Shown piece after piece: positions 24,701 through 38,991 of a stretch of DNA of 64,000 bases. The notes beneath the pieces were generated by a model. That model was not told the DNA's origin. It worked only from the letters and a program-made list of their open reading frames with translations, and ran no database searches. Source of the stretch: Leucoraja erinacea. Lineage: Eukaryota. The translations under genes and the position numbers were made by a program. Where the stretch lies: contig NC_073394.1 of the NCBI RefSeq assembly GCF_028641065.1, forward strand, positions 41,478,001-41,542,000, read 5' to 3'. How positions within the stretch are numbered: position 1 is the stretch's first letter; each line of letters starts with the position of its first letter.

Positions 24701-27700
24701 TGGACGACTATTTTTTTTACACAGAGGTGTGTTGGGGGTTGCCTGGAACATGCTGCGGAGGCAGAGCAGATTAATTTATGTTTGGCATGAACATTGTGGG
24801 CTGAAGGGCCTGTTCCTGTGCTGTACTCTGTTCAATGTTCTATATTTCATGCATTTATTCACTCGACTGAATGTGAACTGTCAGATAGTTTTAGCTGATC
24901 TCCTGGAAAACATTAGTTAGATAGATAGAGTGGACGTGGAGAGGATGGTTCCAGTACTGGGAGAGTCTAGGCCCAGAGGCCACAGCCTCAGAGTAAAAGG
25001 ACGTTCCTTTAGAATGGAGATGAGAAAGAATTTCTTTAGCCAGAAGGGGGTGAATCTGTGGAATTAATTGCCACAGGCAGTTGTGGAGGCCAAATCATTG
25101 GGTATTTCTAAAGCCAAATAAATTGATAGGTTTTAAAGAATTGATAGGTTTGTGATTCCTTTCTAAAGGTAGGTACGTCCTTTTATTCTGAGGCTGTTCC
25201 CTCTGGTCCTAGACTCTCCCACTTGTGGAAGCATCCTCTCCACATCCATTCATTTCTATTAACGTCTAACTTTCATCGGCTGATCTTTCTTTGTTCTTGA
25301 GGTGCACCAGCATTTTTCACCTCTGCATTTCCAGTTCTTTTGTCCTTGCATTCTGATTTTGATTCATTTTTTCATATCCTTGGCCTTATTTTTGTCTCTG
25401 ATCTACTTACTGATTCTCATGTTATTTATAAATGTGGAGATACCAAAAATGTAATGAGATATTGCGCCAGGTGTTCTTACATCCATATTTATTACAGTGG
25501 ATGTTTTATGTAGATGAATGATGAATTTGTTCTGATACTTTTAAAGTGACATAAACCTCTTCCAAAAGAAGAATAACATCAAAATGCATTTATTTTTCTA
25601 GTACCTCCTAAAGTGTCTGAAATCGCCAAACCACCACACATTATACATTTGGAAGAAACTGTTCTGACTTGTCACATTTCAGGATATAAGCCTGCAGACA
25701 TTTCGCTTTGTTGTTTTCTACAAAGAGAGGGAGGAAATAAAAGTGAGATTTTCCAATGGAGTTCTGCACCTGGCCACTCGCAAGCACCTGAAGCTATTGA
25801 CCAGCAAAGTCTTATTTGCAACGGCGACTCTGCAAAGGAGTCTTTCCACATTGAGATGACAGCTGTTACACATGATGGCCGCTCCAGTGCAAAATGCAAA
25901 ATTATATTCATCCCTGATATTGATAATGATGACGGAACTGTCCTCTTTCTTCACGTTTTACACAGCACTCTTGGAAAGCCTATTATTAAATCCATCCAAT
26001 TGAATGTTGAAGGAAGTAAGTATACACTGCAGCACACGGTGCAGCAGGTAGAGCTGCTGCCTCACAGGGACAGAGGCTCGGAGTTTGACCTGGGGTGTTG
26101 TCTGTGTGGAGTTTGCACGTTCTCCTTGTGACTGCTGGGTTTTCTCCCGGTGCTCCGGTTTCATCCCATATTCCAAAGACGTGCGGGTTTGTAGGTTAAT
26201 TGGCCTCTGTAAATTGCCCCTAGTGTTAAGGGAGTGGTTGAAAAAGTGGGATGACATAGAACTAGTGTGAACAGGTGATCGATGTTTGCTGTGGGTTTTT
26301 TTAATTGAAGGGTCTGTTCGCATGTTGTGTTTCTAAAGTAGACTAAATGATGTCAAGAAAACAATTATCTTTATTTGTTTATAAAAGCGTCTTACTAAAT
26401 CAATACCTCAGGTAAAATGTAGTTTAGCTTAGAGATACAGCATGGAAACAGGCGCTTCTACACACCAAGTCCACACCAAACATCGATCACCTGTTCCACA
26501 TTATTCCACTTCCTCACCTATTCCCTACACGCTGAGGGCATTAACCTACAAACCCACACGTCTTTGGGATGTGGGAGGAAACTCACGCGGTCATAGGGAG
26601 AATGTGCAAACTCCACACAGACAGCACCGGAGGTCAGGATCGAACCTGGATGTCCGGCTCTATGAGACAGCAGCTCTACCAGCTACACCACTGTTCCGCC
26701 CAAAATTACTCTGTTTTAAATATATACTTTTAAGTTAACCGTCCTTTCTGTAATTATATCTCACAAATAATCCAAAATACTATGCAGTAAATCTTACTAG
26801 TGTGTGTGGGTCTGTTAAAATGGCTGGATTGCAGTTACATCTCAACTGGATTTGAGTATAGGAGCAGGGAGGTTCTACTGCAGTTGTACAGGGTCTTGGT
26901 GAGACCACACCTGGAGTATTGCGTACAGTTTTGGTCTCCAAATCTGAGGAAAGGCATTCTTGCCATAGAGGGAGTGCAGAGAAGGTTCACCAGACTGATT
27001 CCTGGGATGTCAGGACTTTCATATATCTTTGGAATTCTCTGCCACAGAAGGTAGTTGAGGCCAGTTCATTGGCTATATTTAAGAGGGAGTTAGATGTGGC
27101 CCTTGTGGCTAAGGGGATCAAGGGGTGTGGAGAGAAGGCAGGTACAGGATACTGAGTTGGATGATCAGCCATGATCATATTGAATGGCGGTGCAGGCTCG
27201 AAGCGCCGAATGGCCTACTCCTGCACCTATTTTCTATGTTTCTATGTAACTGCACTAGACAAAATAAACTCAGCAAGTTTTATACAATGCACTGTAAATT
27301 CTAAAACCATGAAATCTTCTCTCCTTTTTCCTTTCTCAAATAAAAACAGTTGCACCAAAGATGACTAATATTATTGCTCCGCCTCACATTATTCATGAAG
27401 AGATGATTGCTCTGTCTTGTCCTATTGACGGATTTAAGCCAAGACCACTGGCCATCACTTGGTACCAAAAACCCAACATAGCAAACGAGAACATGGGATT
27501 GAAAGAAATTGTGAGAACTGTGTTTGGAAGCGAAGATGTTATTGCTGATTGGGATCTGCCTAAATATTCCCACTCTCTAAATGAGTTGGCCAATGAAGAC
27601 AATACTTATAGTGTCACCAGTTTCCTAAAATTTACACCGACGATTCTCGCAGACCATGAAACCGTGTACGTTTGTGAAGTTGAACATCCAGCTACGGCTT

Positions 27701-38100: not shown

Positions 38101-38991
38101 GAAGCCTTAACTTAAAAAAATTGTTAACAAGGATGGAATTGATCAGTCGGGTACTAAGGTTTTAAAAGAAAACTTTGGGTGGCGCAGAGGTGGAGTTGTG
38201 GACTTGCAACACCAGAGACTCGGATTCGATCCTGACCTCAGGTGCTATCTATGCTGAGTTTGCATGTTCTCCCCTTGACCGAGTGGGCTTCCTCCGGGTG
38301 CTCTGGTTTCCTCCCACAACCCAAAGACCTGCAGGTTTGGAGGTTAATTGGCTTTGGTAAAATTGTAAAGTGCCCCTTGTGTGTAGGTTAGGGCTAGTGA
38401 ATGGGCTGATCGCTAGTCGGCTTACTCAGTGGGCCGAAGGCCCTGTTTCCACTATGTATCTCCAAAGTCTAAAGTAAAAGTTAATTGGCCTCTGTAAATT
38501 GTCCCCTACTGTACAGGGAGTGGATGAGAAAATGGGATAACATAGAACTAGTGTGAACATGTTAGCGATGGCCAGCGTGGATTAGCTAGGCCTAAGAGCC
38601 CAGCTTGCTGTATTTCTGAACTAAACTATCCACTGTCGAAAGTGAGACCATCTCAATATGTGCATATTCTACTCTATTTTAAGGTAATTCCCCCAATGTG
38701 TCTGAAATCAACCGCAAAGCTCAAGAGGAAAGCACAGTGGCATCTTTCACGGTTTCGTTGACTGATTATGTACCTCAGAAAATTGAGGTGAAGTGGTTCA
38801 AAGGAGAACAACGCTATGTAGGGCCTGTCCATAATAGTCAACCTCAGGTTGCCACCACTGGCCTCTTCTCTTCAACAACAGAAATACAATTTATTCCAGA
38901 ACCATGTGATCATGACTTGGAAATCAGATGTGAGATATTTCATCTGGAAACAAAGAAAAGGATTTACCGAAAGTGTCGCTTAACATTTTGA
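11107..38991 (+). CDS. NCR3LG1-like: B7-H6/NCR3LG1-like type I membrane IgSF protein, 10 coding exons, ~975 aa: SP-IgV-IgC1-TM-(IgC1)x6
   Basis: Exons 11107-11182, 13278-13634, 18842-19162, 23916-24032, 25602-26015, 27350-27736, 29099-29410, 33015-33338, 37772-38083 and 38684-38991 all have AG/GT boundaries in phase 1. They join into one open frame of 2928 nt including TGA. The V and C1 sequences resemble human B7-H6 as I recall it. Confidence 0.8.
11271..12310. repeat. Minisatellite of (cacactcactc/cacttccacac)-cagtgtacact units in intron 1
   Basis: ~22-bp units with a palindromic GTGTACAC core. Confidence 0.95.
13278..13634 (+). CDS. Exon 2: IgV domain, B7-H6-like
   Basis: EGGDLVVSM...LLEC...VGVIWY...[23 protein letters not shown] with canonical C-W-C. 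Acceptor ttgcag (tandem cagaag NAGNAG), donor G|gtaaaa. Confidence 0.9.
14652..18712 (-). mobile_element. Near full-length degenerate CR1 LINE (SGNH-esterase ORF1, APE, RT), with a nested CR1 3' fragment at ~16336-16610
   Basis: ORF1 GNSIVRG...HVGTND (18166-18708), [37 protein letters not shown]1 tail tagaaaca. Lies in intron 2. Confidence 0.9.
18842..19162 (+). CDS. Exon 3: extracellular IgC1 domain, B7-H6-like
   Basis: [16 protein letters not shown]...[16 protein letters not shown]...[10 protein letters not shown]. Acceptor cttcacag, donor G|gtaagt. NGT and NVS sequons. Confidence 0.9.
19405..19915 (+). mobile_element. CR1 3' fragment
   Basis: Same subfamily as 8415-9019. Confidence 0.85.
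20315..21007 (+). mobile_element. Penelope-like element 3' part (GIY-YIG endonuclease)
   Basis: [10 protein letters not shown]...CxxxxCxxC...[16 protein letters not shown]...H. Confidence 0.85.
21011..21735 (+). mobile_element. Rex1/Babar-type LINE 3' fragment
   Basis: [10 protein letters not shown]...FYQSIIESI...HPANHLF...[14 protein letters not shown] plus (ctat)n tail. Confidence 0.8.
21823..21850 (+). ncRNA. Minimal hammerhead ribozyme core in a Penelope pseudo-LTR
   Basis: CTGAAGA, stem GGGTC-TC-GACCC, then GAAACGTC. Variants at ~7101, 9838 and 59196 (+) and ~12695, 20037 and 44225 (-). Confidence 0.6.
22725..23346 (+). mobile_element. Rex1/Babar-type LINE 3' fragment
   Basis: [12 protein letters not shown]...SFFPEAIR; (acttg)n tail. 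Confidence 0.8.
23916..24032 (+). CDS. Exon 4: transmembrane helix plus basic stop-transfer
   Basis: [39 protein letters not shown]. Poly-T tract/ttacag acceptor, G|gtaaag donor, 117 nt, phase 1-1. Confidence 0.85.
25602..26015 (+). CDS. Exon 5: post-TM C1-like Ig domain 1 (no F-strand Cys, long insert)
   Basis: VPPKVSEI...[10 protein letters not shown]...[11 protein letters not shown]. Acceptor tttttctag, donor A|gtaagt. Confidence 0.8.
27350..27736 (+). CDS. Exon 6: post-TM C1 Ig domain 2
   Basis: [17 protein letters not shown]...[12 protein letters not shown]...YVCEVEHPA. Acceptor aacag after a pyrimidine tract, donor G|gtacag. Confidence 0.85.
29099..29410 (+). CDS. Exon 7: post-TM C1 Ig domain 3
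   Basis: [16 protein letters not shown]...DGRYSF...LTCKFQHES. Strong polypyrimidine acceptor ctcttcag, donor A|gtaagg. Confidence 0.85.
29905..31745 (+). mobile_element. CR1 ORF2 fragment
   Basis: [26 protein letters not shown] and FADD motifs, broken by stops and frameshifts. Confidence 0.9.
31945..32365 (+). mobile_element. CR1 3' fragment
   Basis: [11 protein letters not shown]...WNSLP plus tail. Confidence 0.85.
33015..33338 (+). CDS. Exon 8: post-TM C1 Ig domain 4 (no F-strand Cys)
   Basis: [20 protein letters not shown]...FKVEALH. Acceptor tttttgcag, donor G|gtatgt. Confidence 0.85.
34856..35255. mobile_element. Tc1/mariner (Tigger-like) MITE
   Basis: TA-flanked imperfect TIRs caggtccaccattaatttcc / ggaaaatcagtggtgaacctg. 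Confidence 0.6.
35395..36475 (+). mobile_element. Nested CR1 3' fragments (two subfamilies)
   Basis: C-terminal ORF2 motifs and two different tails. Confidence 0.85.
36527..37469. mobile_element. Non-autonomous DNA transposon, P-element-like (CAAAG termini)
   Basis: ~37-bp TIRs (caaagatcctatagcggagcaagataggctactcctg and its near-perfect inverse) and an 8-bp TSD GTCCTGAC (36519-36526, 37470-37477). Confidence 0.8.
37772..38083 (+). CDS. Exon 9: post-TM C1 Ig domain 5 (no F-strand Cys)
   Basis: [17 protein letters not shown]...DGFYQL...LVFEVKN. Acceptor ccaaatag, donor G|gtaagt. Confidence 0.8.
38684..38991 (+). CDS. Exon 10: post-TM C1 Ig domain 6 (no B-strand Cys), ends in TGA
   Basis: [20 protein letters not shown]...GLFSSTTEI...IRCEIFH...LTF*. 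Acceptor ttttaag. TGA at 38989-38991 is followed by G|gtaaat. Confidence 0.8.

Follow-up and report, generated by a model that had tools for sequence, protein, structure and literature searches.

Several described systems share part of the design presented here. In the butyrophilins (BTN3A1/BTN2A1), a B7-type V-C ectodomain and one transmembrane (TM) segment are combined with a folded cytosolic β-sandwich module, the B30.2 domain, which exerts inside-out control of display. Tandem immunoglobulin (Ig) domains are found in the cytosol in the titin I-band and its kin, where the core cysteines are variable. The human member of the B7-H6 group, B7-H6 itself, has a tail made of a Gag-like domain and Tyr motifs. 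To our knowledge, the C1-set Ig domains of other proteins lie in lumenal or extracellular regions, as in antibodies, T-cell receptors, major histocompatibility complex molecules and tapasin. The sections consulted of PMC6514059 describe B7-H6 (NCR3LG1) as a type I V-C protein bound to NKp30 via loops resembling complementarity-determining regions; those of PMC13262535 present the disulfide between strands B and F as the hallmark of the Ig fold, and place NCR3LG1 in a cluster with TAPBP/TAPBPL. Here we describe LOC129705982, a gene on the + strand of a 64,000-nucleotide stretch of the skate Leucoraja erinacea (contig NC_073394.1, positions 41,478,001 to 41,542,000; hereafter the window), whose 975-aa product, labelled 'uncharacterized' in RefSeq, consists of a signal peptide, an IgV and an IgC1 domain, one TM helix and six C1-type Ig domains (D1 to D6). 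Like B7-H6 it is a type I protein with an IgV + IgC ectodomain, but its family has the six predicted cytosolic Ig domains instead of the human tail. Its tail is an Ig array and not the B30.2/SPRY module of the butyrophilins (no Pfam hit for that domain in the nine exons scanned), and it differs from titin-type arrays, which are I-set domains of soluble proteins, in having C1-set domains on a B7 membrane protein.

The introns of LOC129705982 are all GT-AG and every exon join is in phase 1. The ten exons form a single 975-aa frame with a sole stop at 38989-38991, so that the open reading frames are intact, as had been proposed. Exon 1 (11107..11182) provides the ATG, at a position matched by the orthologue starts, and the signal peptide (hydrophobic residues 3-34). 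At the canonical B- and F-strand positions of the Ig domains, the cysteine (Cys) state was read codon by codon. Both Cys are present in the IgV domain of exon 2 (13278..13634, Pfam V-set 38.5 bits; B TGC 13352, F TGC 13577) and in the IgC1 ectodomain of exon 3 (18842..19162, Pfam C1-set 45.4 bits; B TGT 18910, F TGC 19099). Exon 4 (23916..24032), which is absent from two annotated orthologue isoforms, encodes the sole TM helix followed by KILKK and has no stop codon. Behind it, the B-F pair is found in D2 (exon 6, 27350..27736, Pfam C1-set 37 bits; B TGT 27418, F TGT 27673) and in D3 (exon 7, 29099..29410, 44.9 bits; B TGC 29170, F TGC 29347). It is incomplete in the other four domains: the F position is Leu in D1 (exon 5, 25602..26015; B TGT 25670, F CTT 25949), Val in D4 (exon 8, 33015..33338, 31.2 bits; B TGC 33089, F GTT 33272) and Phe in D5 (exon 9, 37772..38083, 46.5 bits; B TGC 37843, F TTT 38020), while in D6 (exon 10, 38684..38991, 28.6 bits, stop TGA) it is the B position that has become Val (B GTT 38752, F TGT 38929). 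The original prediction, that the two ectodomains keep both Cys, that the F-strand Cys is missing from D1, D4 and D5 and the B-strand Cys from D6 (motifs LFLHVLH, FKVEALH, LVFEVKN and FTVSL, all found), and that the substitutes are hydrophobic, is thus borne out by the codons. Its further statement that losses occur only behind the TM segment is correct, with the restriction that two of the six post-TM domains retain both Cys. Taken alone, the skate protein does not depart from chance: the probability that four losses among eight domains all fall in the six tail domains is 15/70 = 0.21.

The five domains D2 to D6 score above the Pfam C1-set gathering threshold. D1 gives no Pfam hit, yet it can be aligned with D2-D6 and is modelled with the same strand order; it carries an extra E-strand Cys and a long flexible insertion, disordered in the AlphaFold2 (AF2) model. 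That model, made for a 958-aa skate protein, has a mean predicted local distance difference test score of 86.0; in it every one of the six tail domains shows an Ig strand pattern, that of D1 being of the β-sandwich kind. Skate D1 contains five Cys; in the two skate D1 rows of the alignment one of them occupies the C-strand Trp position, which is Trp or Leu in the 15 other rows. The product is identical to RefSeq XP_055505932.1 over 975 of 975 residues. Five contig-derived skate proteins (944-958 aa, ~99% identical) span the TM segment and the tail, and the contigs behind them measure 3.2-3.6 kb against a gene span of 28 kb, which implies a spliced transcript.

Homology searches returned 17 close proteins from skates, rays, sharks, a chimaera and Xenopus tropicalis. 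In their alignment both Cys are present in 17/17 rows for V, C1, D2 and D3, and the losses seen in the skate are common property: D1-F is absent in 17/17, D4-F in 17/17, D6-B in 12/12 and D5-F in 11/12. The orthologues have therefore not kept all their Cys, the outcome that would have pointed to decay in one lineage. A wider profile search gave 4368 representatives at E values of at most 0.001. Among the best 150 of them, which were analysed, 78 proteins passed an architecture filter (C1, TM and a tail domain scoring 40 bits or more), 25 formed a more distant group, 3 were used as controls and 44 were left unclassified. In the 78, with domains below 40 bits or with an unaligned site excluded, the Cys pair is retained in 149 of 150 ectodomains (V 71/72, C1 78/78) versus 104 of 231 tail domains (D1 1/61, D2 39/41, D3 46/48, D4 3/32, D5 14/32, D6 1/17; in divergent members with short tails, the domain labels are guesses from the best score). 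This contrast is beyond chance across the family, although the rows, being related, are not independent. The three controls, proteins with extracellular arrays, have the pair in 16/16 domains. The Cys left without a partner are themselves conserved, in 33/34 cases for D4-B and 21/21 for D6-F.

The architecture occurs in sharks, rays, chimaera, coelacanth, lungfish, frogs and a newt (names checked for 20 representatives), and in a shortened form with three tail domains in the lizard Pogona. All family members examined are annotated as 'uncharacterized' or bear unrelated names. Five shark models (P0008 and P0012-P0015, from Heterodontus, Carcharodon, Scyliorhinus, Cetorhinus and Mustelus) stop after D4; the whale shark retains D5-D6, and the ending at D4 elsewhere is either a real truncation or a matter of annotation. 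Four paralogues (P0056, P0069, P0085 and P0103) have tandem D1-like repeats lacking both canonical Cys, with seven copies in P0056 from the horn shark. Another four proteins (P0160, P0161, P0173 and P0174, the last from a bamboo shark) share the ectodomain and have long tails in which no Ig domain was detected. The tail seems to be swappable within this family.

A FastTree phylogeny of 76 domains drawn from ten proteins (100 columns, midpoint root) places each of the six tail positions in a single clade of its own, which runs from skate to newt with a support of 0.91-1.00. It follows that the tail and its Cys losses are ancient and do not reflect decay in the skate, and that the six-domain tail is older than the split between sharks and bony vertebrates, about 450 million years ago. 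As the losses lie on different branches and hit different Cys, they go back to about four separate events. Three proteins of a divergent lineage (sawshark, lungfish and one other) still have D1-F, the E position being Ser, and that of the sawshark also has both D6 Cys, in keeping with disulfide-bearing exons that lost their Cys one step at a time. Across an ectodomain tree with 77 tips, the unpaired D1-B Cys changed 15 times and the D2/D3 Cys 0-2 times, while the orphan D4-B and D6-F Cys changed once and not at all, respectively. Since orphan Cys are conserved without a partner, retention in D2 and D3 need not mean that a disulfide is formed. Compared with Xenopus, individual tail domains are 25-38% identical and the ectodomain 33-43%; D2, the best conserved tail domain (mean pairwise identity 0.40), is conserved like the ectodomain. 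Exons maintained from sharks to frogs at such levels are not the pseudo-exons that might otherwise have been suspected. The finding is real, ancient and conserved.

On which side of the membrane the tail lies was approached by computation. The hydropathy profile of the 975-aa product shows two segments only, the signal peptide and the TM segment of exon 4. The uncharged span around the TM segment has a median of 27 aa and reaches 38 aa in only 2 of 81 proteins, which argues for a single-pass helix; a hairpin TM was rejected on these figures. The first tail domain starts at most 15 aa behind the TM segment in 71 of the 81. Mean net charge rises from -0.5 ahead of the TM segment to +1.5 behind it, as expected from the positive-inside rule, and N-glycosylation sequons occur at 1.77 times expectation in ectodomains against 1.04 times in tails (78 proteins). 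From these sequence features, the tail domains are very likely cytosolic.

Membership of the B7-H6 group rests on profile and structural comparisons. B7-H6 was the top solved relative in profile searches (197.7 bits versus 113 for TAPBPR), and was also ranked first by the profile of a divergent paralogue. With the skate V exon alone, 4-Ig CD276 came first (58 bits, two repeats), followed by B7-H6 (39.4) and 2-Ig CD276 (33.1). The ectodomain model superimposes on the B7-H6 structures 6yjp, 4zso, 3pv7 and 3pv6 with a template-modelling score (TM-score) of 0.89-0.91 (target length) and a root-mean-square deviation of 2.1-2.4 Å, at about 30% identity. For the whole chain, the top Foldseek match was titin I65-I70, at a TM-score of only 0.22-0.33, i.e. 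a generic resemblance. The computed signal peptide, single TM segment and positive-inside charge agree with a type I single-pass protein. The skate tail, made of six Ig domains, has no ITIM-like motif (immunoreceptor tyrosine-based inhibition motif) and is unlike the human one, so that the protein is a variant of the B7-H6 group and not a one-to-one copy of the human protein. When short named B7-H6 relatives were sought, 0 of 1041 candidates passed 1e-15. B7-H6-type genes form a multigene family in fishes and amphibians, unlike in human.

The explanation we favour, and hold to be rather likely, is a surface ligand of the B7-H6 type that carries an Ig scaffold in the cytosol. The protein would belong to the B7-H6 (NCR3LG1) group as a type I membrane protein. 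Sequence and models show six folded Ig domains starting a few residues behind its TM segment; these would lie in the cytosol, a compartment in which no B-F disulfide can form. The tail would derive from disulfide-bearing C1 exons, acquired before sharks and bony vertebrates split; D1, D4, D5 and D6 would later each have put a hydrophobic residue in the place of one Cys, and the Cys still present, with or without a partner, would act as core-packing residues. That residence in the cytosol caused the losses is, in our judgement, probable. The ectodomain would be a putative ligand of a lymphocyte receptor of the NKp30/NCR3 type. The tail, devoid of a catalytic domain or ITIM-like motif, may be a protein-binding scaffold with D1-D3 as its conserved core, which would govern from within the cell how the ligand is clustered, trafficked or displayed, as B30.2 does in butyrophilins; we give a scaffold role an even chance.

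Several results weigh against this explanation. The pair is retained in 85 of 89 D2 and D3 domains, almost as in ectodomains. Both Cys are found in 14 of 32 D5 domains, those of the amphibians examined included, and Phe in fishes and the divergent lineage, a distribution that needs either a regain or repeated losses. In the 25 proteins of the distant group, which also bear post-TM Ig arrays, the pair is present in 81/101 post-TM versus 46/52 pre-TM domains (p=0.26; Cys-less domains score lower and may be under-detected), hence Cys loss is no general marker of post-TM Ig domains. These proteins (P0076, P0107, P0124, P0129 and kin, the four named being frog proteins) combine a B7-like ectodomain with as many as a dozen Ig domains behind the TM segment. 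The sequon contrast is weak in a 41-row alignment (1.33-1.35 per domain in the ectodomain versus 0.74-1.71 in the tail). The TP of the B7-H6 FG loop, which we take to be the NKp30 contact motif, is present in the family consensus and is SP in the skate. Finally, annotated X2 isoforms lack exactly the TM segment in Carcharodon (39 aa) and Xenopus (36 aa), and a form of this kind would route the same domains through the endoplasmic reticulum (ER). The idea of the original prediction that the Cys pattern independently supports the unusual topology therefore holds in part: the single TM segment, the charge bias and the sequons agree with it and the losses are ancient across the family, but about four events, a nearly intact D2/D3 pair, the amphibian D5, a distant group without contrast and the TM-less isoforms make the support weaker than claimed. 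The Cys losses favour a cytosolic location without proving it.

The same isoforms, together with an X2 of Cetorhinus that also lacks the TM segment, make a secreted form whose tail passes through the ER possible, and skipping of the TM exon stays in frame since all joins are in phase 1. The tail might then work in both compartments, as the cytosolic array of the membrane form and as part of a secreted eight-Ig form, perhaps a decoy ligand, in which the D2/D3 pair would be retained for its disulfide. This dual topology is compatible with a cytosolic array for the membrane form, and the part of PMC6514059 consulted reports soluble human B7-H6, which is produced by shedding. We nevertheless regard it as unlikely, though the most serious of the rivals: the isoforms are automated models of a gene in which any exon can be skipped in frame, the TM segment is present in all five near-full-length skate contig proteins, and the conserved orphan Cys of D4 and D6 explain the retention in D2 and D3 without a disulfide.

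A tail that is cytosolic throughout could also retain the invariant D2/D3 pairs as a redox switch, closing under oxidative stress, a role that has been proposed for titin Ig domains. The near absence of change at the D2/D3 Cys, compared with the unpaired D1-B Cys, and the ectodomain-like conservation of D2 would suit such a switch. The orphan Cys of D4 and D6 are conserved just as strongly, which points to packing, and we consider the switch improbable.

Far less credit can be given to a lumenal or extracellular tail, with Cys losses like those of extracellular Ig domains that lack the disulfide. There, D1 would have exchanged its B-F bond for a B-E bond such as that of Siglecs: the D1 domains that lost the F-Cys acquired one on the E strand, and B and E Cys occur together in 28 of 61 D1 domains. 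The two do not covary, however (28, 19, 7, 7; p=0.55), and the B-Cys is absent from 19 of the 47 domains with an E-Cys; an obligatory B-E disulfide in D1 was rejected on this basis. Such a tail would require a TM hairpin, or else an internal signal like that of IGSF1 (PMC6552037, in the portion consulted). The uncharged span of the skate protein, 31 aa, and the sequons that recur in D1 and D5 speak in its favour; against this stand the median span and the charge bias reported above, and the recurrent sequons are found in at most 10 of 40 rows. Lastly, an artefact, with two genes joined by the gene model or a short B7-H6 trailed by decaying pseudo-exons, could be suspected from nine short V-C1-TM relatives without a detected Ig tail and from the shark models that stop after D4, but it is already largely refuted by the contiguous contig-derived proteins, the TM exon without a stop and the equal architecture from chimaera to newt, and is almost certainly wrong.

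Flajnik et al. in 2012 and Ohta and Flajnik in 2015 reportedly dealt with Xenopus and shark B7H6 genes, probably the same expanded gene family, and the same group may have mentioned cytoplasmic IgSF domains in B7H6-like genes. In the titles and abstract openings searched, a scope outside which these two papers fall, no description of post-TM Ig domains in B7-H6-like proteins was found. The odds that the topology has already been noted in print are about even. Both papers are cited in PMC12227049 and PMC10751288, as the consulted parts of these show.

As to the rest of the window, additional Ig exons were sought in it and none was found besides the eight. The RefSeq model has 130 extra N-terminal residues, taken from 2622-2768 and 10861-11106; this extension is probably over-predicted, because the orthologues start at the ATG matching 11107. 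The region just upstream of exon 1 (10500-11200) is CpG-rich and promoter-like (observed/expected CpG ratio 0.87). In intron 1, tandem short CA-rich units (~11260-12330) generate long spurious open reading frames in all three frames. The introns and the regions 20306-21004 and 55219-56176 contain many broken frames that, from their motifs, are presumably remnants of reverse transcriptases of the long interspersed nuclear element type, with GIY-YIG-like and integrase-like fragments.

For the history of the family, we would tentatively picture, at well under even odds, an ancestral jawed-vertebrate B7-H6 with a cytosolic C1-set array, placed behind the TM segment by exon duplication, which shed its disulfides stepwise and served as an intracellular sensor or scaffold licensing a natural killer (NK)-cell ligand; skipping of one exon would have yielded a secreted form, mammals would have replaced the array, and the topology and Cys history would be new to print. 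If the topology is true, C1 domains of the antibody type reside in the cytosol in a conserved family of vertebrate proteins. Such a family would illustrate the long-term adaptation of the Ig fold to a reducing compartment, with a bearing on the design of disulfide-free intracellular antibody domains, and would suggest that the NK-cell stress ligand B7-H6 formerly possessed an intracellular module able to control its display.

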